Shown: positions 17,255 to 58,043, numbered from the stretch's first letter. The stretch: 64,000 nt of DNA from Candidatus Doudnabacteria bacterium (GCA_016182875.1 JACPFQ010000004.1:183556-247555), one strand, 5' to 3'. Program-made: numbers and translations. The notes: a model not told the origin generated them from the sequence alone.

Positions 17255-19174
17255 TTAAAGACTGGCCTTTATTTTTTCAGCCGCGGAGTTCCCGACAACG
17301 CGCGCCAGCTCTCCCAATGTCGCTTTGCGAATTTGAGCGACAGACCCAAAGGTTGTCAGCAGCATTTTTTTCTTGGCCGGTCCAATGCCTGCGATTTCAT
17401 CCAAAGTCGAGAGGCGCGAGGCTTTGGATCTGAGCTTTCGGTGATAGGTGATGGCAAAACGATGAGCCTCGTCGCGAATGCGTTGCAGCAAAAAAAGCGC
17501 TATGGAGTTAGGTTGTAAGATTAAGGATTTAGGTTGACCAGGCACAAAGATTTCTTCGAGCTTTTTGGCCAGTCCGATGGTTGCTATATTCAGGTTATAC
17601 ATATGTATAACCTTTTTAGCGACAGAGAGCTGACCCTTACCGCCATCGATGAGGATCAAATCGGGAAGGGGCCAGGTCTTGTCATTGCGAGGAGCCGCAG
17701 GCGACGCGGCAATCTCTTTCTGAGATTGCTTCGCTTCGCTCGCAATGACAGAGCGCATAAATCTACGAGTAAGCATTTCCCTCATCATGGCATAATCATC
17801 CGGCGTGTCTTGGAACTTAATCTTAAACCGCCGATAGTCTTCCTTTTTCGGCCGCCCGAAATCAAACACAATCATTGACCCAACCGCGTTTTTCCCCTGG
17901 ATATTGGAAATATCATACGCTTCGATTCTTCCGGGCAGGGTTTTCAAATTGAGGACGCGCTGAAGTTCTTTGAGCGCGCTCATGAGTCTTGCCTCCTCCA
18001 AAAGCTTCTTGTCTGACTGAGATTCCAGATATTGCTTGGCGTTTTCCTGGCCAAGTTTAATAAGCTTAAGCTTTTGGCCTTTTTTAGGCACTGAGATAAA
18101 GGGCACCTTTTTGGTAGAGAACCCTGACAGTAAAGGTGCCCTTTGTTTTACCGGCGCCAAAATTTCTTTCGGCCAGCTCGAAGCCTCCAAATAATACCTC
18201 GGCAGAAATTCGCTAAGGATTTCGGCAATGCTTGCTCCTTTAGTATTTTCAAGAATAAAATTTTCCTGGCGGATGAGCTTGCCTTCGCGGACTACAAAAA
18301 GGTTCACAGCAGCCGCTGTGGCTTCTATGTAAACGCTGAACACGTCCTGGTCAATTTTTTTTGGATAGACAAGTTTCTGCCTTTCGAGCACGCGGTTAAG
18401 CGCATAAATTTGGTCGCGGACTCTTGCCGCTTTTTCAAACAATTTGGCTCGGGCGTAGCCCTGCATCCGCAATTTTAGGTGTTTAAGAATTTCTGACTGC
18501 CGGCCCTGCAGAAATTCCATGATTTTATTTATGTAGTTTTTTCGGTACTCTTCCAAGGAGATTTTGCCTATACATACTCCCGGGCATTTGCCGATATGGT
18601 AGTAAAAACACGGATGGTTGCTGATTTTTTTGTTGCCGCAGTAAGGGAAAATTTTTCTTAGTAGCCGTAGCGTGTCTTTGATGGAAGCGCTGGAAGTATA
18701 GGGTCCGAAGTAGCGCGCCGATTTATCGGCAGATTTTCTCTCATAGCTAATCGTGGGAATTTCGTCGGCCAAATTGATTTTGACGAATAGGTAATTTTTG
18801 TCATCCCGCAGTAAAATGTTGTACTTGGGTTTGAGCTGTTTGATGAAATTGTTTTCCAGAAGCAGGCTCTCCAGCTCATTGTCGGTAACGGTGTAATCGA
18901 AATCTTTGATCTGCGTGATCATGAGCTGGATTCTCGGCGATAACTCCCCCGCTTTGCCAAGGGCTTTGTCACCCAGCCCCCGGCGGGTAGTGAGGGAGGG
19001 AGTTTCTCTTAATTTAAGAGGGGGTTGGGGGGAGTTATAAAAATGCGAACGCACGCGATTCTTAAGATTAATCGCTTTGCCGACATAAAGAACCAGCCCC
19101 TTGGCGTCTTTGAATGTATAGACACCCGGCTTGCTGGGAAGTTCTTTGATTTTGTCAGCTAGAGCTTTTTGCAT
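17255..19174 (-). CDS. uvrC: excinuclease ABC subunit C
   Basis: GIY-YIG (PGVYxFKD...LYVGKA), UvrC homology, RNase H-like/HhH C-terminus; start set at Met 19174 (the upstream 15 codons lie in a repeat). Confidence 0.9.
   Translation of the reverse strand: MQKALADKIKELPSKPGVYTFKDAKGLVLYVGKAINLKNRVRSHFYNSPQPPLKLRETPSLTTRRGLGDKALGKAGELSPRIQLMITQIKDFDYTVTDNELESLLLENNFIKQLKPKYNILLRDDKNYLFVKINLADEIPTISYERKSADKSARYFGPYTSSASIKDTLRLLRKIFPYCGNKKISNHPCFYYHIGKCPGVCIGKISLEEYRKNYINKIMEFLQGRQSEILKHLKLRMQGYARAKLFEKAARVRDQIYALNRVLERQKLVYPKKIDQDVFSVYIEATAAAVNLFVVREGKLIRQENFILENTKGASIAEILSEFLPRYYLEASSWPKEILAPVKQRAPLLSGFSTKKVPFISVPKKGQKLKLIKLGQENAKQYLESQSDKKLLEEARLMSALKELQRVLNLKTLPGRIEAYDISNIQGKNAVGSMIVFDFGRPKKEDYRRFKIKFQDTPDDYAMMREMLTRRFMRSVIASEAKQSQKEIAASPAAPRNDKTWPLPDLILIDGGKGQLSVAKKVIHMYNLNIATIGLAKKLEEIFVPGQPKSLILQPNSIALFLLQRIRDEAHRFAITYHRKLRSKASRLSTLDEIAGIGPAKKKMLLTTFGSVAQIRKATLGELARVVGNSAAEKIKASL
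17682..17750. repeat. ~69-bp palindromic element (GCGAGCGAAGCGAAGCAATCTC core) lying in frame inside uvrC
   Basis: tcattgcgag...gcaatctctttctgagattgc...ctcgcaatga; encodes ...SVIASEAKQSQKEIAAS...; same core at 30043, 57501, 28989, 32062. Confidence 0.55.
18972..19039. repeat. C-rich hairpin element (family of 13021..13099) lying in frame in the uvrC GIY-YIG region
   Basis: cccagcccccgg...ctcttaatttaagaggggg ttggggggagttat; adds ~25-30 residues (SPQPPLKLRETPSLTTRRGLGDKALGKAGE) between RVRSHF and IQLMITQI. Confidence 0.5.
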
Positions 19175-27005: not shown

Positions 27006-27221
27006 TGGGTGAGGCCATGATTCGGCAACGAGTCCTCTGGCCCTTTTTATTTGCTTAGGCCTTGACCCCGTTAGAAATAAGACGCCAACGGTGTCTGCCG
27101 ATACGCAAGTATTGGATTTCTAACGGGGTTGACATTTTAGTTTTTCTGGTATCTCAAATGAGCGTACCATAAAAGTATACAGAAATTCGTGGTTTAGGTT
27201 CCCAAAAAGGAGGGTAAAGCC

Positions 27222-27923
27222 GTGCCACGAGAGGATCGCATGTTCGGTGATTTCTACGTTGCGCCAGCCAGGAGCGTTCGGCGCGTGACCATTCGAGTGC
27301 TTGTCGGCAGTTTCTGGCTTCTGCTGTTCGTTGCATTTGGTTATAGTCGGGCAGTGGCGATTGACAGTCTGCCAAGGGTGGACACGATGATGAAGATCGT
27401 GCTGCCATCCGCGCCCCCGCCCCCGCCACCAGCTCCGGTCCCGCCCAAGAATCAGCCGGAGCGGCCAGTGGTCAGCAAGCCGGACTTTCCGGTAGAGCCG
27501 CCGACCGGCATTCCGCCCGAGCCGCCGTTCGATGTTCCAAGCGTTCGGAACATTCCCGGTGTCATCGACGGAGTTCCTCCCGGCGAGATTCCGGACTTCG
27601 TTCCTCCGCCACCGCCTCCGCCGCCCAAGCCGGTAGAACCCGTACCGGTCGGAGGCAACATCAGGCCGCCACAGCGGCTTGAGCACGTTCCTCCTGAGTA
27701 CCCGGCTATCGCTCGGACGGCACGGGTGCAGGGAATCGTGATCATCCAAGCCACGATCAACGAGACGGGTCGGGTAGTAGAGGTCGAGGTCCTTCGGTCG
27801 ATCCCGCTTCTTGATCAGGCAGCACTTGACGCGGTACGGCAATGGCGCTATACACCAACGCTACTCAACGGTAAACCGGTGCCCGTCATCACGACGGTCA
27901 CGGTGCAGTTCACCCTGCAGTAG
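27222..27923 (+). CDS. TonB C-terminal domain protein (proline-rich periplasmic spanner + TonB_C)
   Basis: N-terminal TM, PPPPPP linker, C-terminus ...VQGIVIIQATINETGRV...RYTPTLLNGKPV; GTG start after AAGGAGGG RBS; ~62% GC. Confidence 0.7.
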   Translation: MPREDRMFGDFYVAPARSVRRVTIRVLVGSFWLLLFVAFGYSRAVAIDSLPRVDTMMKIVLPSAPPPPPPAPVPPKNQPERPVVSKPDFPVEPPTGIPPEPPFDVPSVRNIPGVIDGVPPGEIPDFVPPPPPPPPKPVEPVPVGGNIRPPQRLEHVPPEYPAIARTARVQGIVIIQATINETGRVVEVEVLRSIPLLDQAALDAVRQWRYTPTLLNGKPVPVITTVTVQFTLQ

Positions 27924-30042: not shown

Positions 30043-30131
30043 TGTCTTTGCGAGCGAAGCGAAGCAATCTCATCCCGAGAAAAGAGATTGCTTCGTCGAC
30101 CGGCAATTCGCCGGTCTCCTCGCAAAGACAG
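30043..30131. repeat. 89-bp nested palindromic element in the dnaK 5' region
   Basis: tgtctttgcgag|cgaagcgaagcaatctc...gagattgcttcg|tcgaccggcaattcgccggtc|tcctcgcaaagacag, three nested stems. Confidence 0.6.
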
Positions 30132-30199
30132 CTTGATGAGTCTACGAAAAAGGTTCGCAGATTCGTTTAGCTAAATAATCACGAAAGGACAAAACAAGC

Positions 30200-34692: not shown

Positions 34693-35355
34693 TTATTGTT
34701 TCAGAACATCGCGCATTGAATACCATCCGGTCTTGCCGGCTACCCAATTTGCTGCCAACAGCGCTCCTTGTGCGAAGGCTTTACGATCCTTGGCGGTGTG
34801 GGTCAGCTCGATGGTGTCCGACGGACTGTCGAACCCCACCGTGTGGATGCCGGAGATTGAGCCAGCTCGCGTGAATGAGACGTCGATGGCGCGATTGAAG
34901 CCAGCCTGTGTCATGGTGTTGCGAAGCATCAAGGCGGTGCCTGAGGGCGCGTCTCGCTTGGCCGCGTGGTGCGCTTCATATATCCATGCGCCGTATTGCG
35001 GCTGAGCCTGGAGCAGCCTCGCGGCCTCTGCCACGACCATCTGAAAGAGGTTGACGCCAATGGAGAAGTTCGGGGCAGCCACTACGCCCAGCCCGGCATG
35101 TTCTGCCTCGGTGCGCAGTCGGCTTTCATGCTCGGACCATCCCGTCGTCCCGATGACGACGTGCAGTTTCCGTTCCGCGTACTGTCCAAAATTGGCAATC
35201 AGCGCTTCAGCAGTGGAGAAGTCGATTGCCACGTCCGCCCGGTTCCACTCATTCCGTTCTCGGTTGACGCGGCCTACTACTTCGAAACCCTGTTCCGTAG
35301 CCAGCTGATCTATTAGCCGGCCCATCTTGCCGTATCCGACAATCAGGATTTTCAT
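34693..35355 (-). CDS. dapB: 4-hydroxy-tetrahydrodipicolinate reductase
   Basis: MKILIVGYGKMG N-terminal Rossmann, DapB C-terminal domain; GC-rich. Confidence 0.85.
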   Translation of the reverse strand: MKILIVGYGKMGRLIDQLATEQGFEVVGRVNRERNEWNRADVAIDFSTAEALIANFGQYAERKLHVVIGTTGWSEHESRLRTEAEHAGLGVVAAPNFSIGVNLFQMVVAEAARLLQAQPQYGAWIYEAHHAAKRDAPSGTALMLRNTMTQAGFNRAIDVSFTRAGSISGIHTVGFDSPSDTIELTHTAKDRKAFAQGALLAANWVAGKTGWYSMRDVLKQ

Positions 35356-36197
35356 CTTTTGCTCCAGAAAAACGGGGCGCACAGAGGCGGCCGATACACG
35401 GGCTCCATCAGACCCCGCATGCTCATTACCACTTTCACCGGGATGGGGTTGGTCTCCACGAACAGCGCCTGAACGAGCGGGAACAGTTGGTAGTTGATTC
35501 GCCGCGCCGTCGCCCAGTTGCCGTCGAGCGCCGCATACACCATGTCCACGGTTTCGCGAGGCATGGGGTTTGAGATCACGGAGATCACCCCGTGTCCGCC
35601 GATGCTGATGAGCGGCAGCGTGAGCGCGTCGTCGCCGGACAGATACGTCAGGCGGTCGCCGCAGAGCTGGATGTCAGTCATCATCTGATCGAGCTTGCCG
35701 GTCGCTTCCTTGACGCCCACGATGTACGGATGTTCCGACAGCTCGGCCAGGGTCGGCGGCAGCAGGTCCACGCCCGTACGCGACGGGATATTGTACACGA
35801 TCACGGGCAGGCCGACATCGGCAATTGCGCGGAAATGGGCCAGGAGGCCAGCCTGGGTAGGCCGATTGTAGTACGGTGTCACCACCAGGCAGCCGTCAGC
35901 ACCCGCCTCCTTCGCGTGCTGGGTCAGGCTGACTGCCTCGGCCGTGGCGTTTGAGCCAGTGCCGGCGATGACCGGCACGCGACCCGCGGCTTCTTCGATT
36001 ACGATTTCGGTAACCCGCCGCTGCTCGTCGTGAGAAAGCGTCGGGCTTTCGCCGGTCGTCCCGCAAGGGACGAGGAAATCGATACCCTGCGCGATCTGCC
36101 AGTTCACCATGCGCCGCAGGACTGTCTCATCCACCGAAAGATCCGGGTCGAACGGCGTGACCATGGCGGTCCCGCAACCCTTAAATGTGCGCTTCAT
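35352..36197 (-). CDS. dapA: 4-hydroxy-tetrahydrodipicolinate synthase
   Basis: DapA family (GTTGES, active-site Lys region); GC-rich; start set at MKRTFKG. Confidence 0.85.
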   Translation of the reverse strand: MKRTFKGCGTAMVTPFDPDLSVDETVLRRMVNWQIAQGIDFLVPCGTTGESPTLSHDEQRRVTEIVIEEAAGRVPVIAGTGSNATAEAVSLTQHAKEAGADGCLVVTPYYNRPTQAGLLAHFRAIADVGLPVIVYNIPSRTGVDLLPPTLAELSEHPYIVGVKEATGKLDQMMTDIQLCGDRLTYLSGDDALTLPLISIGGHGVISVISNPMPRETVDMVYAALDGNWATARRINYQLFPLVQALFVETNPIPVKVVMSMRGLMEPVYRPPLCAPFFWSKR

Positions 36198-36604
36198 GTT
36201 CTTCCTCCGATTATGGCTCTGCTCTTCGGCAGCGGAGCTGGTGTCCAGAACTCTCAAGCACAAGCTTTATTACTACTTGCGCCGAAGAGACTTTACACCA
36301 AGAAAGCCGCCTTCTTTCGAAGGCGGCTTTAGGTGATTTGATTAGGCTAGAACTGATTAATCAAGACTCACCAAAAAGCTACCTTCAGAGGAAGGCTTCT
36401 TACCGTACTTTTTGCTTGAGAAAGTCTGATTAGTCATCGTTAGCTAATACTAAATTAAAATTCCGTTGTTGTCAATTTGGTGTGGCTTTACAATCACGCT
36501 CGAACGTATTTTAGCAAAAATTTGTAAAAAATGACAGAGAGCCGCGCTATGCGCGGCACAATAGCTGTAATGCGCTCGGGCGCGGCGGAATCCCCCTAAA
36601 TTCC

Positions 36605-52791: not shown

Positions 52792-53246
52792 ATATTGTTT
52801 TCTATAGAATATACTAGTACTTTGAAAATTAAAAATCGCCCAGTCATTCGACCGGGCATTCTGGTGTTCTTGACCCTACTTCACGAGCGGCGAAAGGAAG
52901 CAGCATCCCTCCTATTGTTTCTGAGTAACCACAAGTTCAGGCTCAAATGGTCTTCCATTTCCGCCTGGCGCTCGTAAGTAGGGTTAAGCACATCACAACA
53001 CGTCCACGGAGGACAGGGGGTTAACATGATTCAGATCGTGATTTTCGGGTCCGCAGCACTGGCTCTTGCGGGCCTCGGTTACTTCGTCGTTCGCGACCTG
53101 ATCGCTCCAAGGCTGGAGCGGTTCGGGGACACCATCCTCAACATGCTCAGGGCAATCGGAAGCCTGCACTGATAGAGGCAGGCGTCAGTCCACCCCGCGG
53201 AAATTTCGCGGACCACCATCACGTGTTCGGATCTTCGGAGGCAACC

Positions 53247-53615
53247 ATGCTAGGTCGTTCACCAAGCAATTCCACCGCCCTGACCAAAGCCAGCGACCTT
53301 CCCGGGCCGCGATTGGTCAAAAACGGTATTGTGTTGGCCAGCCAACCCAAGCCGTCCTACCTTGCGAGAGTCGTCAATGTTGACCATCCCCCGCCGGGAG
53401 CTGAAGCGGTTCCCATGCTGGCTGGCGACATCGATGACGTCCTCAGGCGTATTTTTGGGAGCGATACCAGGCTCTATCACCGCCTCAGTTGCAATGACGA
53501 GGATGGGTCTGAATGCGACTTTCAAAGCGTACTCGCTGAATCCGGCGTGCACTCGAACGAGCCCTTGGCCGAGCGCTTCAGCGACACGATGCGCCGCGTC
53601 CGCTTCGAAAGCTAG
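53247..53615 (+). CDS. GC-rich orphan hypothetical protein
   Basis: GGAGG RBS; ~60% GC island 52990..53700; a 48-codon TM ORF (53026..53172) with GGAGG RBS lies just upstream. Confidence 0.4.
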   Translation: MLGRSPSNSTALTKASDLPGPRLVKNGIVLASQPKPSYLARVVNVDHPPPGAEAVPMLAGDIDDVLRRIFGSDTRLYHRLSCNDEDGSECDFQSVLAESGVHSNEPLAERFSDTMRRVRFES

Positions 53616-53796
53616 CCCGCAAGTCTCATCCCGCCTCGAAATCGGTCTGTTCCCAGCAGACCAAACCTTGCCCAATCCCGCCTGGGCCAGTGGCTACCAA
53701 GTCCACCGCGGTGAACAGGGAGGCCACAAAATTTCAACACTCGCCGGCGTTGCGCTATGCTCGCCGGCGCATTTTTTTATTTGGTTTATCTACAAA

Positions 53797-54039
53797 TTAA
53801 ATCTCCCCTCTCCTCCCAGGAGAGGGGTCGGGGGAGAGGTGGTTAGAGATTACTTGCAAAACACCTTCCAGGTTTTCGTCTATTTCGCTGTTCCAGAATC
53901 TAAGAATCTTAAAACCAGAGTCAGCTAAATATTTTGATCTTTTATGGTCTTTGATTTTGTTTATTCGTTCATTATGCTGACCGCCATCAATTTCGATGAT
54001 GAGTTTTTTCTCAAAGCAACAAAAATCTACTATTGCCAC
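53797..54039 (-). pseudogene. DUF559 (Vsr-like endonuclease domain) C-terminal fragment
   Basis: ...KKLIIEIDGGQH...GFKILRFWNSEI matches the DUF559 core, but the N-terminal half is missing and replaced by a C-rich hairpin repeat at 54046..54070. Confidence 0.5.
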
Positions 54040-54090
54040 CCCACCCTTAATCCCTCCCCTGAAAGGGGAGGGAAATTCTAAGATGTATAT

Positions 54091-54633
54091 TCATCCATTG
54101 AATTTGCTTTGTGCCATATCCAGTCCTTCGGTCATCAAAGTTTCGACCGCATCTTTTGCCCGCAGCAGAACTTCGTTCACAATTTTTTCTTCTTGTACCG
54201 TAAATTTTTGTAAGACATAGTCATCTCCCTGGAGTTGTCCTCGAGTTTCCGAGTTATCAATGCCCAGCCTGATTCGAATGAAATCTTTTGTGCCAAGTTC
54301 GGTGATAATCGAATCCACGCCATTGTGTCCGGCCGCAGAAACGTTTTTTTGTATTCTTATAGTGCCCAGTGGAAAATCCAAGTCGTCGTGGACCACAACC
54401 AGCTGTGCGGCTGGGTAGAATTTCAAAATCTGGTTGATGGATTTTCCCGACAGATTCATAAACAGCTGCGGTTTGGCCAAAATCACCTCGTCCGTTTTCA
54501 AAAACAAGCTGTCATATTTGTTTTCCCAACCTTCAGGGCCTGCCAATAAATCAAGCACTCGAAATCCGAGGTTGTGCCTGGTTTGTTCGTATTGTTTGCC
54601 TGGATTGCCCAGGCCGACGATGAGAAAGTGCAT
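54091..54633 (-). CDS. pth: peptidyl-tRNA hydrolase
   Basis: GLGNPG...HN.GF N-terminal motif. Confidence 0.85.
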   Translation of the reverse strand: MHFLIVGLGNPGKQYEQTRHNLGFRVLDLLAGPEGWENKYDSLFLKTDEVILAKPQLFMNLSGKSINQILKFYPAAQLVVVHDDLDFPLGTIRIQKNVSAAGHNGVDSIITELGTKDFIRIRLGIDNSETRGQLQGDDYVLQKFTVQEEKIVNEVLLRAKDAVETLMTEGLDMAQSKFNG

Positions 54634-54634
54634 C

Positions 54635-55057
54635 TTATTTTTTTCTATTAAATATTTGCAAAAACAGTGCTGGCCGGACAATAGGGATATTTCTAAATTG
54701 TTTTAACTGAGTTAAGTGCCTATCGCCTGAAATAATATATTCAGCCTGAGCAGCATATGCCGTTTCCAGCAGACGATTATCGCTAGGATCATCTTTGATA
54801 ATGTTAACATTGGTATCCGGGTAATAGATCGCAGAAGCGGCAAGTAATTTATCAAGCAGAGCGTCCGTGTTAATTTTTAATTTTTGGGCCTGCTTCTTCA
54901 TGTTGGAATAGTTTACTACGCGAATCAACTCATCAATCGTCTCCGGCGAGAAGCATAGAATTATTTGACGGCGGTTGACCAAAGTAAAAAGCTGCTCGAG
55001 AGATTTGCCCCAAAGCAGCATAGAAATTAGCACATTGGTATCAGCAGCTATCTTCAT
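54635..55057 (-). CDS. PIN-domain toxin (VapC-like)
   Basis: N-terminal D (IAADTNVLI), conserved acidic residues, ~140 aa. Confidence 0.7.
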   Translation of the reverse strand: MKIAADTNVLISMLLWGKSLEQLFTLVNRRQIILCFSPETIDELIRVVNYSNMKKQAQKLKINTDALLDKLLAASAIYYPDTNVNIIKDDPSDNRLLETAYAAQAEYIISGDRHLTQLKQFRNIPIVRPALFLQIFNRKK

Positions 55058-55278
55058 TTGGCCTGGGCTAGGGCTTTTTTTAGGGCAGATTTGGTTATAA
55101 CTCTGCCTAAACGCCGCCAGGTTCGAATTTCGGAAGGAGAATAAATCTTATCTGTTTTTTTTATCTTAGTGATAGTCGCAGTATTTCCAGTAATACGCAA
55201 GAATACCTTACTGCCCCGCCAGGTTTTGGGTAAAGTAATTGAATTAGATTTAATCTTGGTTATTGTAGCCTGAGTCAT
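55054..55278 (-). CDS. AbrB/MazE-fold antitoxin (VapB-like)
   Basis: 74 aa; 4-nt overlap with PIN gene; swapped-hairpin-like ITLPK motif. Confidence 0.55.
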   Translation of the reverse strand: MTQATITKIKSNSITLPKTWRGSKVFLRITGNTATITKIKKTDKIYSPSEIRTWRRLGRVITKSALKKALAQAK

Positions 55279-55297
55279 ATTTCAATTATACTCAGCC

Positions 55298-55326
55298 TTG
55301 ACAGAATCGTCAAAAAGGAGTATAAT
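55298..55326 (+). promoter_or_regulatory. consensus sigma70 promoter TTGACA-N17-TATAAT driving the DGR target gene
   Basis: ccTTGACAgaatcgtcaaaaaggagTATAATat; hairpin cccgtc-atcac-gacggg in the 5' UTR and AAGGAGG RBS follow. Confidence 0.55.
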
Positions 55327-55453
55327 ATATTGTTTCAAGATACGGTTCCGGGTATTGTTAATAATATCTAGAATCGTGTCTTGAGGCATCCCGTCATCAC
55401 GACGGGACAAGCCGAGTTCGGGCGGTCTCCCGGACAACAAGGAGGAACCCACC

Positions 55454-56113
55454 ATGCCAAGTCATGGAACCCCCCTCTCCGCAACGCATTTGGCGCCGTT
55501 TGTTAGTACGGCGACCAAAGCCCTGATCCTGGTCGCGAATGATCTGGGACAGGGAGTCCAGGAAAGCTGGGCGAACCGGAGCGAAGAAATGCAGTCGCTC
55601 TTCCGCCAGGCGTTTCTGCCGCCGCAACAGACGGGCCAGCCGCTCATGGCGCGCTATATCGTGCCGATCCCGAACATCGCGGTGAACTACGACCGCAAGT
55701 TCGTGGACGCGGCAATGGCCGGTGGTCCGCAGACCCCGTCCAACTACGATGTCCTCAAAGTCGGCGACCTCTACGTCGCCCGGCACAAGGGCATCGTCCG
55801 GCGCAACATCACGATCGTGAACTTCGGGCTGGACGTCAGCTCGGAACAGGCGCAGGAGTTCGGGCAGGCGCACAAACTCGGTCGCACGCTCGATCCATGG
55901 GAGTGCTTCTCCATCGGCGAGCACCGGCCCATGCTCAATCGCGAGCTCGGCTTCGACTACATGGCCGTTGTCTCGTTGGAGAAGTGCGAGTTCGGCGGTG
56001 AGTCGCGAGTCTGCAGCTGCTGGTGGGACGAGCGGGAGCGCGAGGCCGCTCTCAACTGGTTCACCGACGGCTGGCACGTCCGCTGCTGGTTCGGTTTCGT
56101 CCGCGAGTCCTAG
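55454..56113 (+). CDS. DGR variable (target) protein; C-terminal ~38 residues encoded by VR
   Basis: C-terminus ...CEFGGESRVCSCWWDEREREAALNWFTDGWHVRCWFGFVRES lies in the VR; GC-rich (~60%). Confidence 0.8.
   Translation: MPSHGTPLSATHLAPFVSTATKALILVANDLGQGVQESWANRSEEMQSLFRQAFLPPQQTGQPLMARYIVPIPNIAVNYDRKFVDAAMAGGPQTPSNYDVLKVGDLYVARHKGIVRRNITIVNFGLDVSSEQAQEFGQAHKLGRTLDPWECFSIGEHRPMLNRELGFDYMAVVSLEKCEFGGESRVCSCWWDEREREAALNWFTDGWHVRCWFGFVRES
55989..56104 (+). repeat. DGR variable repeat (VR), 116 bp
   Basis: Gap-free alignment to TR 56439..56554 with 17 mismatches, every one at a TR adenine. Confidence 0.85.
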
Positions 56114-56130
56114 GGCTCTGGGGATCTTTG

Positions 56131-56163
56131 GGTTTGAAACTCTGACACTTTGAGTTTCAGACC
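56131..56163 (+). other. GC-clamped hairpin immediately 3' of VR (DGR homing-associated stem-loop candidate)
   Basis: ggtttgaaactc-tgacacttt-gagtttcagacc. Confidence 0.5.
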
Positions 56164-56438
56164 CTGGGTCCCTTTTTCTTTTTTTAAAATTTTGATATCA
56201 TTTTTTCAGATATTAGATCAGTCCGCGGCCATGGTTTCGGACAATCGAATTCCGGAGTTTGATCAGCCAGAATGAGATCGGGCACGCTTGATCTTAGTGT
56301 GTTTTTCAAACTTCCCAAAAGATGAAGAAACTCGGTATAAGGCATTGGCGGATTAGTGTCGCTTAGCGAGATGCTATCCCAAATAAAATTCAACCCCAAG
56401 AGCATTTGAGGGGCGGTGGCATAGATGATGCTTTCTAC

Positions 56439-56554
56439 AATTCGGCGGTAAGTCGCAAGTCTGCAACTGCTGGTGGAACGAGCAGAAGCGCAAGGCCAAT
56501 CTCAACTGGTTCACCAACGACTGGAACGACAACTACTGGTTCGGTTTCGTCCGC
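56439..56554 (+). repeat. DGR template repeat (TR), 116 bp
   Basis: See VR; contains 30 A of which 17 differ in VR (13 A>G, 3 A>C, 1 A>T). Confidence 0.85.
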
Positions 56555-56568
56555 TACTTTCTTCGGCT

Positions 56569-56889
56569 TTATCCCGCCTTTGCGGCGGGATTTTCTTTGC
56601 TGGCTTGTCTATACCAGCCGCCAAGCATTTTGCCGATTTCATTCAGCGGTTCAGAAAGAGCGATGTATTTTTTGGTATCCAAGGCTTTAATCTCCCAGAG
56701 AATCTGCAAGAATAGTTTGAGCAAATCGAGCTTGATTATGGTTTTTTGCAAATATGCAGGTTTCTGCGGCTTCGATGAGTATCCAGCGATAAAACTTAAT
56801 TCAATTGTGCTTAGAAACAATATGTCAATTTTTGCGCCAAGAGTATATTTCGAAGATTTTAAAATGTGCGGCATGAAGCCATACCACAT
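56569..56889 (-). CDS. avd: Avd-like four-helix-bundle protein (23S rRNA IVS-protein family), antisense to the rest of the DGR
   Basis: C-terminal ...LNEIGKMLGGW... and FIAGYSS match the IVS-protein/Avd consensus (..NIAEG..R / ..EEIxKMLNGL..). Confidence 0.55.
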   Translation of the reverse strand: MWYGFMPHILKSSKYTLGAKIDILFLSTIELSFIAGYSSKPQKPAYLQKTIIKLDLLKLFLQILWEIKALDTKKYIALSEPLNEIGKMLGGWYRQASKENPAAKAG

Positions 56890-56966
56890 TTTGTAAGCAG
56901 AAATAAGATGTTGCAGAATCGGAAGATTCCGTTGGGGGGGGGGGCGTTAACAGAGGCAAAATTCAG

Positions 56967-58043
56967 TTGGCTCATGGTTTTGACGAGATTATTTCTGTTG
57001 AGAATCTGCTCTTGGCTTGGCAAGAGTTTATCCGCGGCAAGAGGAATAAGCCGGATGTCCAACTCTTTGCTCACGCTTTGATTGATAATATTTTACAGCT
57101 TCACAATGATTTAGCCAACAAGACTTATCGGCACGGCGGATATTACCAGTTTAAGATTTCCGATCCCAAGCCGCGGGATATCAGCAAAGCCTCGGTTCGC
57201 GATAGGCTTTTGCATCATGCGATATATCGAATCCTGTATCCATTCTTTGACCGGACATTTATCGCTGATTCTTTTTCCTGCCGGGTTGATAAAGGCACGC
57301 ACAAGGCGGTCAACCGATTGCTGGCAATGTTCAGAAAAGCAAGCAAGAACAATACCCGCACATGCTGGGTTCTCAAATGCGACATCAGGAAGTTCTTTGC
57401 CAGCATAGATCATGATGTTTTGAAAAATATTTTAGCTAGACATGTTCCTGACATAGATATGCTTTGGCTTCTAGGGAATATTATTGATAGCTTTGGGTCA
57501 GATTGCTTCGTCGGCCGCCAGACTAAACCCCGGCCAGAAAACCGGCCTCCTCGCAATGACATTAAATCTGTCTTTGCGAGCGAAGCGAAGCAATCTCATA
57601 ACCAGGGTCTTCCCTTAGGCAACCTAACCTCCCAGCTCTTCGTCAACATATATATGAACGAGTTTGACCAGTTTGTGAAGCATAAACTCAAGGTTAAGCA
57701 TTATATACGCTATGCCGATGATTTTATAATTCTATCTCCAAGCGAAGAGGAACTCACTGCAATACTGTCACGTATTGCAGTACTCCTCAAGCAAGAGCTT
57801 AAACTGCGGCTTCATCCACATAAAGTCACTCTTAAAACCTTTGCTTCAGGCATTGATTTTTTAGGGTGGGTTAATTTTCCCCATCATAGAGTGCTACGCA
57901 CAGCCACGAAAAAACGGATGCTTAAGCGTATCCGTGTAAATTCAACCAATGAAACCTTGCAATCTTATTTAGGACTTTTAAAGCACGGGAATACTTTTCA
58001 AAAAATTTTCGCCAGCCCGCAGCAATGGCCGCGGGGAAGTTGA
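56967..58043 (+). CDS. DGR-type reverse transcriptase
   Basis: RT motifs: KCDIRKFFASIDH (2), GLPLGNLTSQLFVNIYMNEFD (4, DGR-specific LGNLTSQ), YIRYADDFIIL (5, YADD), GIDFLGW (7); TTG start after AGAGG RBS. Confidence 0.85.
   Translation: MAHGFDEIISVENLLLAWQEFIRGKRNKPDVQLFAHALIDNILQLHNDLANKTYRHGGYYQFKISDPKPRDISKASVRDRLLHHAIYRILYPFFDRTFIADSFSCRVDKGTHKAVNRLLAMFRKASKNNTRTCWVLKCDIRKFFASIDHDVLKNILARHVPDIDMLWLLGNIIDSFGSDCFVGRQTKPRPENRPPRNDIKSVFASEAKQSHNQGLPLGNLTSQLFVNIYMNEFDQFVKHKLKVKHYIRYADDFIILSPSEEELTAILSRIAVLLKQELKLRLHPHKVTLKTFASGIDFLGWVNFPHHRVLRTATKKRMLKRIRVNSTNETLQSYLGLLKHGNTFQKIFASPQQWPRGS
57501..57597. repeat. ~97-bp palindromic element (GCGAAGCGAAG family) lying in frame within the RT gene between motifs 3 and 4
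   Basis: gattgcttcgtcggccgcc...ccggcctcctcgcaatgaca...tgtctttgcgagcgaagcgaagcaatctc; encodes ...GSDCFVGRQTKPRPENRPPRNDIKSVFASEAKQSH... Confidence 0.5.

Follow-up and report, generated by a model that had tools for sequence, protein, structure and literature searches.

A chromosomal diversity-generating retroelement of the common CPR layout in Candidatus Doudnabacteria, with a second natural genotype and a simple-sequence repeat at the avd/reverse transcriptase junction

Introduction

Whether a complete and active diversity-generating retroelement (DGR) is present in the chromosome of Candidatus Doudnabacteria bacterium, and whether it departs from the DGRs of other bacteria of the candidate phyla radiation (CPR), are the questions raised by positions 55,298 to 58,043 of a 64,000-nt stretch of DNA (GCA_016182875.1 JACPFQ010000004.1:183556-247555, one strand, 5' to 3'; this whole stretch is called the window, and positions are counted from its first letter). 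An earlier note on the locus, made from the sequence, had described a complete and unusual element consisting of a target gene ending in a variable repeat (VR), a template repeat (TR), an avd accessory gene and a reverse transcriptase (RT) gene. We consider it very probable that the cassette is a complete and recently active chromosomal DGR of the B3 class of CPR DGRs, with the order target-VR, TR, inverted avd and RT, and that it works by the mechanism set out below. All of the claimed parts were found, and the tests on the RT and on the repeat pair agree; the claim of overall unusualness fails, the inverted avd, the GC-rich target and the stem-loop 3' of the VR being either norms of the clade or terminator-like. 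The new value here lies in two clade-wide features, a simple-sequence repeat (SSR) at the junction of avd and RT and a terminator-like hairpin after the TR; we found no mention of either in the papers on DGRs that we read.

Repeat pair and reverse transcriptase

Re-alignment of the two 116-nt repeats (coordinates of all features are collected in Table 1) proceeded without gaps and gave the same counts as the earlier note: 17 mismatches, every one of them at an adenine of the TR (13 A>G, 3 A>C and 1 A>T), for which the hypergeometric probability, given 30 adenines in the TR, is 1.2e-12. When the TR is read in the frame of the VR, its adenines are distributed over codon positions 1:2:3 as 11:17:2, and the 18 adenine-templated codons could in theory yield ~4e16 different proteins. 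Nine nucleotides separate the end of the VR from the stop codon of the target gene. A 19-nt stretch lacking adenine, CTGGTTCGGTTTCGTCCGC, is identical in the VR and TR, and the two sequences diverge 3' of it, making this a candidate for the initiation of mutagenic homing (IMH/IMH*) region. A scan of both strands of the 64-kb window with the TR adenine positions masked found no further TR-like copy and no second VR.

The protein encoded 3' of the TR matches RVT_1 and carries the features that had been proposed for it, including the diagnostic motif 4 and the YxDD catalytic box in the form YADD. Its motif L217-GNLTSQ223 (within GLPLGNLTSQ) fits the signature [I/V/L]GxxxSQ, which marks DGR RTs in place of the QGxxxSP of group II and retroviral RTs (PMC7826257). 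The PKPR motif is the equivalent of R74 in bRT, the RT of Bordetella phage, and the best solved relative of the window RT was 8ub7_A (150 bits, E 1e-42, against ~67 bits for group II intron RTs), a structure that we judge from its residue numbering (R74, I181) to be bRT itself. An identical RT protein has been deposited from a Candidatus Doudnabacteria metagenome-assembled genome (MAG), so the host is a CPR bacterium; the 327-kb contig of that record carries no DGR annotation for the element.

The accessory gene was likewise found on the opposite strand, where its protein exceeded the cutoff for PF22296 bAvd (43.4 bits; cutoff 40), and not PF05635 as had been expected; it scored 56 bits with NF033474 DivGenRetAVD, under the cutoff of 80, and weakly matched the Avd of phage BPP-1 (4dwl, residues 44-122). 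The ATG-initiated open reading frame (ORF) previously reported as the avd gene is present, whereas its standing as the whole gene did not hold: it comprises the 3' 106 codons of a 129-codon frame broken at the G11/C11 run described below.

A second natural genotype differing in the VR

A Logan contig (L001, run SRR12113385) of 3,594 nt equals window positions 54004-57597 except for 17 substitutions, and all 17 lie inside the VR at positions where the TR has an adenine. The flanks, TR, avd, G11 run and an in-frame insertion in the RT are common to both sequences, which were compared as two consensus genotypes (assembled sequences, not reads). The target encoded by this contig is the closest relative of the window target (94% identity), and only 4 word-indexed relatives of the target protein were found among 5.8 billion clusters. 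Since both genotypes have the insertion and the G11 run yet differ at 17 VR positions, the VR changed after both of these supposed lesions had arisen, and the comparison, our strongest piece of evidence, shows that the element diversified in situ, after the avd and RT oddities of this copy had appeared. Other assemblies of the locus were sought by an exact look-up of the RT and by a scan of JGI metagenome contigs for the flank of the G-run, and neither returned any.

Many metagenome contigs with related DGRs (L086-L089, L092-L095, L108-L109 and L112-L113) start ~0.6-1.1 kb upstream of the RT, near the TR and VR, which is consistent with assembly breaks at the repeat pair or at heterogeneous VRs.

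Layout shared with other CPR elements

Relatives of the RT are numerous, with more than 586 found in Patescibacteria genomes by a scan of one genome per species and more than 7,900 proteins at E<=1e-60. For comparison of the loci we used the best 80 of the >586 relatives, which were 56-63% identical to the window RT and came nearly all from Patescibacteria. In 71 of the 71 relatives with visible upstream sequence, avd was inverted and abutted the start of the RT gene, and the 51 relatives with a TR/VR pair all had the order VR, 330-400 nt, TR, avd (minus strand) and RT, with spacing as in the window. The inverted avd, which had been taken to stand out, is thus the published B3 layout: Wu et al. 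2018 (PMC5758913) assigned 90% of their CPR DGRs to the architecture TR-(avd)-RT.

The window element is therefore an ordinary representative of the CPR B3 class rather than an unusual variant of it. It shares with these DGRs the gene order and strands, one upstream target with the VR at its end, a CPR host, an RT 57-76% identical to those of hundreds of elements and a small target without a Pfam domain, and we found no architectural difference. What sets this copy apart is confined to its genes: the RT contains an insertion of a palindromic repeat (present also in the closest relative) and has lost its ATG, and avd is out of frame. CPR DGRs of this class are reportedly covered by Paul et al. 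2017 and by the 'DGR clade 2' of Roux et al.

Group II affinity or a decaying relic

Two other explanations of the cassette were weighed. According to one, the RT comes from a group II intron or from a retron, and the two repeats arose by ordinary duplication and differ at adenines by chance. Such an affinity is suggested by the name under which NCBI lists the identical RT ('group II intron reverse transcriptase domain-containing protein') and by the best NCBIfam match, the group II intron maturase model TIGR04416, but the RT reaches 131 of the 300 bits that this model requires, and its scores with the retron St85 (48 against 235), Drt2 (72 against 390) and Drt3a (69 against 200) models likewise stay below their cutoffs. 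Rfam matches in the window are three tRNAs only, with no group II intron RNA. Taken with the LGxxxSQ motif in place of QGxxxSP, with bRT as the closest solved structure, with the A-only pattern (P ~1e-12) and with a cassette layout common to 51 relatives, these results effectively refute a group II or retron origin, whose probability we regard as negligible; the protein is a DGR RT.

According to the other explanation, the cassette is a decaying relic: the insertion crippled the RT, the G-run threw avd out of frame, and the TR and VR diverged long ago. Several observations do weigh against an intact, working element. The usual RT start of the clade, MKIQL, reads GKIQL in the window (ATG to GGC), so that the RT has no ATG start and is read here from a TTG; the RT carries a 36-aa repeat-derived insertion where most relatives have 2-6 residues; and at G11 the full-length avd is out of frame and has no in-frame start, the 106-aa form from ATG 56889 being the only open form. 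The G11 run and the insertion are present in both available assemblies, no promoter was identified for the TR RNA, and the evidence of activity consists of two consensus genotypes, so that the VR changes could in principle predate the present frame state of avd. Set against decay, the two genotypes are identical over 3.6 kb, insertion and G11 included, yet differ at 17 VR positions that are all TR adenines. The insertion keeps the reading frame, and a homologous in-frame insertion with 84% DNA identity is conserved in the closest relative (L132, RT 76% identical); the insertion is therefore tolerated. The RT, the target and the body of avd are also free of stop codons. We accordingly judge the relic improbable, if far less so than a group II or retron origin, and retain the B3 DGR that has diversified in situ.

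The inserted segment belongs to a palindromic repeat family of the genome resembling repetitive extragenic palindromes or miniature inverted-repeat transposable elements (REP/MITE-like), which comprises the RT copy, 17718-17752 (minus) and 30043-30135, with copies of the repeat arm at 17722-17746 (minus) and 30047-30071 (plus). RNA folding of the RT insertion gave z = -4.9. Different insertions occupy the same RT loop in other Doudnabacteria RTs.

The target and its predicted fold

No Pfam or NCBIfam family was matched by the target protein. An exhaustive profile search recovered a family of 412 representative proteins at E<=1e-3 (239 at E<=1e-10), mostly of 160-250 aa, whose common region corresponds to residues 70-219. 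In the AlphaFold model, built from a 76-sequence alignment, the predicted local distance difference test (pLDDT) was ~97 for residues 65-219, with low confidence for the first 60 residues. Structural comparison of the model gave the highest score with the tip domain of Bd2740 (7.6), followed by SUMF2, a paralogue of formylglycine-generating enzyme (FGE) (6.1), Intimin (6.1), PvdO (5.9), InvE (5.9), OvoA (5.8), EgtB (5.4), the known DGR target TvpA (5.2) and the invasin 1cwv (5.1); the E-values from Foldseek for the same model were not significant. The C-terminal domain, which carries the VR, is thus predicted from the model to adopt a C-type-lectin/FGE fold, and the earlier guess to this effect is supported at the level of fold, including by the match to TvpA. 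No sequence similarity to the window target was detectable in Treponema denticola TvpA or in other targets with the C-type-lectin/FGE fold, and compared with TvpA the window target is much smaller and lacks a visible lipoprotein or signal sequence. By reading of the sequence, with no localisation predictor used, no obvious signal peptide or membrane segment was found, so that the surface placement assumed in the earlier note is conjectural.

The target gene is GC-rich, as had been noted (63.2% GC), and its third-codon-position GC (GC3) of 84% is the highest among the long ORFs of the window (median 0.55); the backbone value of ~43% given with that claim did not stand, the window as a whole having 48.2% GC. 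A GC-rich target is moreover the rule in the clade rather than an oddity of this copy, since over 48 loci the target outside the VR averaged 52.2% GC against 42.7% for the flanks (mean excess 9.5 points, maximum 20; window target 15 points). The RT and avd match the backbone GC in loci with GC-rich targets (L002-L075; for the window the target part was 55454-55988). Depletion of adenine as the cause of the high GC was ruled out, the AT skew being positive in the 5' part of the gene. Three further ORFs in the window have high GC3 (0.69-0.79 against the median of 0.55), at 96-1073, 27120-27842 and 35352-36263.

A simple-sequence repeat where avd and RT meet

The avd and RT genes are divergent and overlap at their 5' ends, where a run of eleven guanines lies on the RT strand. 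Defining SSRs as G/C runs of at least 8, dinucleotide repeats of at least 7 units and A/T runs of at least 10, we found this G11 to be the only such repeat in the 64-kb window. A junction SSR was present in ~69 of the 80 related loci, with just 4 comparable repeats elsewhere in their 665 kb, and its motif differed between lineages at the same site: G6-13 in most, (AG)n in one sublineage and (TG)n in another (junctions L002-L081 and L096-L131). The repeat is placed either between the 5' ends of the two divergent ORFs or within them. A canonical in-frame start was missing for an Avd with intact helix 1 in 20 of the 69 loci, and for the RT in 10 of the 69.

Tract length varied within two populations whose contigs were otherwise 99.4-100% identical, as judged from assemblies and not from reads. 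At a locus of Uhrbacteria, tracts of G10 (1 contig), G11 (7) and G13 (3) were found, and at a Doudnabacteria locus from Rifle, tracts of G9 (11 contigs) and G8 (5). In the latter, G9 yields a 130-aa Avd from an ATG (MPITTPPQRN...) together with an in-frame long RT, and G8 breaks both. Length variation was absent in three other populations totalling 17 contigs (6/6 G10; 9/9 G9; and G11 in the window and L001).

In the window, the avd frame upstream of ATG 56889 reads, after a stop, RPPPQRNLPILQHLISAYK-MWYGF, without an in-frame start, and TTG 56959 lies one nucleotide out of this frame, across the C11 run. At the observed G11, both the full-length Avd from TTG 56959 and the RT from ATG 56908 are out of frame. 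In silico, G10 or G13 would place the full-length Avd in frame from this TTG as an ORF of 129-130 aa beginning MPLLTPPPQRNLPILQ, with the RT from ATG 56908 out of frame, and G9 or G12 would place the RT in frame from this upstream ATG, with the full-length Avd out. The N-terminus MPLLTPPPQRNLPILQ is homologous to the in-frame, ATG-initiated MPITTPPQRN... of the related Doudnabacteria avd; the peptide encoded upstream of the window G-run is MPLLTPPPQRN.

These data suggest that the junction SSR may be a phase-variation switch of CPR DGRs, with tract length setting the translatability of the full-length Avd and, in some lineages, of the RT; we propose this tentatively, rating its chance appreciably short of even. 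The G-run may instead be no switch: it could act, for avd, as an unstructured C-rich 5' leader or as a ribosome-loading element and, for the RT, as a G-rich Shine-Dalgarno-like element, or it could reflect homopolymer noise in assembly, an explanation whose chance we put at just under even. Consistent with this latter explanation, an avd start (TTG, ATG or GTG) chosen by gene callers lies just 3' of the repeat in ~60% of loci, the share of loci with an upstream start in frame, about one third, is what chance alone predicts, three populations (17 contigs) lack length variation, and long G-runs are error-prone in short-read data. It fits less well with the occurrence of three different motifs, (G)n, (AG)n and (TG)n, as perfect repeats at one site, with the loci that have no canonical in-frame start for avd or the RT, with the recurrence of length alleles across independent assemblies (G8 in 5 and G9 in 11; G10, G11 and G13 in 11), or with the MPxxTPPPQRN peptide upstream of the run, which is conserved between lineages in the frame that the run has to maintain. 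We also considered, and do not favour, programmed +1 ribosomal frameshifting at CCC_C, because roughly as many loci would need an offset of +1 as of -1 and because certain lineages have dinucleotide repeats in place of the C-run.

In Neisseria, Haemophilus and Campylobacter, phase variation at contingency loci arises by slipped-strand mispairing. The junction SSR resembles the repeats of those loci in being a perfect mono- or dinucleotide repeat at a 5' coding end or between divergent genes, in differing in length among near-identical genomes and in altering the reading frame by its length. It differs from them in that it would control a mutagenesis machinery (Avd and/or RT) rather than a surface antigen, in that it is known here from assemblies, and in that the start codon lies 3' of the repeat in many loci. 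No link between DGRs and homopolymers, SSRs or phase variation was found in the literature searched, an earlier mention in Paul et al. 2017 being possible, and the junction SSR of CPR DGRs is apparently unreported.

Hairpins, transcript ends and the proposed mechanism

Sixteen nucleotides past the TR, a GC-rich hairpin with a T-rich tail overlaps the last avd codons on the opposite strand. In a per-sequence stem search, the TR was followed in 49 of 52 loci by a perfect 6-11-bp stem and a T-rich tail, in nearly all of them ~0-16 nt away. The 5' arms comprise 46 different sequences and the stems covary, so that it is the structure and not the sequence that is conserved; RNAalifold returned no structure for this region, MAFFT having mis-registered the variable 5' arms. 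The hairpin is the probable 3' end of the TR RNA, predicted for the window at about 56595-56600, and its conservation indicates that the template RNA probably ends just past the TR; the TR RNA and the RT mRNA are thus probably separate transcripts.

The stem-loop that had been described 3' of the VR is present, with a larger extent than given (~56121-56172 instead of 56131..56163) and with a T-run, which makes it terminator-like. Its DNA fold has -16.9 kcal/mol (z -4.0), and a strong hairpin followed by a T-run occupies the same post-VR position in 83% of the related loci. It is best read as the intrinsic terminator of the target and may double as the equivalent of the hairpin that DGRs have 3' of the VR. 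At the other end of the gene, both the TTGACA-N17-TATAAT promoter and the AAGGAGG ribosome binding site credited to the target were located, the promoter as a consensus match.

We propose that the target is transcribed from its own, seemingly strong promoter to the terminator hairpin, and that the TR would give rise to a short RNA ending at its own hairpin and U-tract. By analogy with BPP-1, the RT together with Avd would copy this RNA into cDNA, misincorporating opposite adenines, and the cDNA would then replace the VR, recoding up to 18 codons on the predicted C-type-lectin-fold tip of the 219-aa protein. What we infer in this scheme is where the RNAs begin and end, how synthesis is primed and what Avd does.

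With the BPP-1 DGR (mtd-avd-TR-brt) the window element shares adenine-specific transfer from TR to VR, the [I/V/L]GxxxSQ motif and the R74 equivalent of an RT whose best solved match is bRT, a four-helix-bundle Avd, a target of predicted C-type-lectin fold with a C-terminal VR, and a hairpin 3' of the VR. The two differ in that the window avd is inverted and lies between TR and RT, in that the window element is chromosomal whereas BPP-1 is phage-borne, and in that the hairpin after the window VR is AT-rich, of considerable length and followed by a T-run. In BPP-1 a ~140-nt spacer leads from the TR into the RT, whereas in the window a terminator-like hairpin follows the TR.

Genomic neighbourhood and feature coordinates

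The 3' end of the RT gene overlaps the convergent der (EngA) gene by 122 nt (57922-58043). The KH-like domain match of Der does not extend to its last ~20 residues, which are opposite the conserved RT motif LQSYLGLLKHGN; this arrangement suggests that der lost its former 3' end to the cassette. Immediately 5' of the cassette are a truncated DUF559 endonuclease-like ORF (53797-54039) and a MazE-like/PIN toxin-antitoxin pair (54635-55278), which places the DGR among accessory genes in the interval from pth to der. Between dprA and the DUF559 fragment there is a second island of ~60% GC (52900-53800) with overlapping ORFs in several frames; it was rejected as a second target or paralogue, the hidden Markov model (HMM) of the target family matching only the target and the TR frame, with no Pfam and no Rfam match in the island. 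The promoter-like sites at 55285-55326 are arranged back to back within an 18-nt inverted repeat (I5), and both promoter assignments are putative, being consensus matches.

Table 1. Positions in the window of the parts of the retroelement and of associated sequence features.
Feature	Position	Strand	Remarks
Putative sigma-70-like promoter of target, TTGACA-N17-TATAAT	55298..55326	+	12/12 consensus positions
Promoter-like mirror site (putative)	55313-55285	-	11/12 consensus; faces MazE/PIN/Pth genes
Shine-Dalgarno AAGGAGG	55439..55445	+	8 nt before target ATG
DGR target, 219 aa	55454..56113	+	N-terminal ~65 residues low-confidence; ~65-219 predicted C-type-lectin/FGE-like
VR	55989..56104	+	last ~39 codons of target; ungapped pairing with TR
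Hairpin and T-run 3' of VR	56121..56186 (hairpin ~56121-56172)	+	8 nt past target stop
TR	56439..56554	+	30 A, of which 28 at codon position 1 or 2 of VR frame; 7 AAC/AAT codons
avd, ATG-initiated ORF, 106 aa	56569..56889	-	spans positions 15-106 of the 107-position bAvd profile
GC-rich hairpin ATCCCGCC-TTTGC-GGCGGGAT and T-rich tail	56571..56600	+	16 nt past TR
avd 5' extension RPPPQRNLPILQHLISAYK	56890..56959	-	conserved start of helix 1 in clade alignment
SSR, G11 (RT strand) / C11 (avd strand)	56934..56944		overlapping 5' ends of divergent avd and RT
DGR RT, 358 aa	56967..58043	+	TTG start; PKPR, LGNLTSQ, YADD
In-frame RT insertion, 36 aa	57495..57605	+	between IIDSF and GLPLG (RT motifs 3 and 4); palindromic genome repeat

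Significance

As a cassette, the element is one more example of a very large described class (>7,900 close RT relatives), and the reassignment of its group II-like RT is a small correction to the NCBI annotation. It nevertheless provides a clean natural example of activity, in which two genotypes differ solely at TR-adenine positions, and a small, confidently modelled lectin-fold target whose family has ~400 representatives and no Pfam entry. The conserved post-TR terminator would mark where the template RNA ends in the B3 layout. To our knowledge the regulation of DGRs is largely unknown; if the switch reading is true, the conserved, length-polymorphic repeat between avd and RT would be a simple ON/OFF mechanism that joins phase variation to targeted hypermutation, and targeted hypermutation would be ON in only a fraction of cells.

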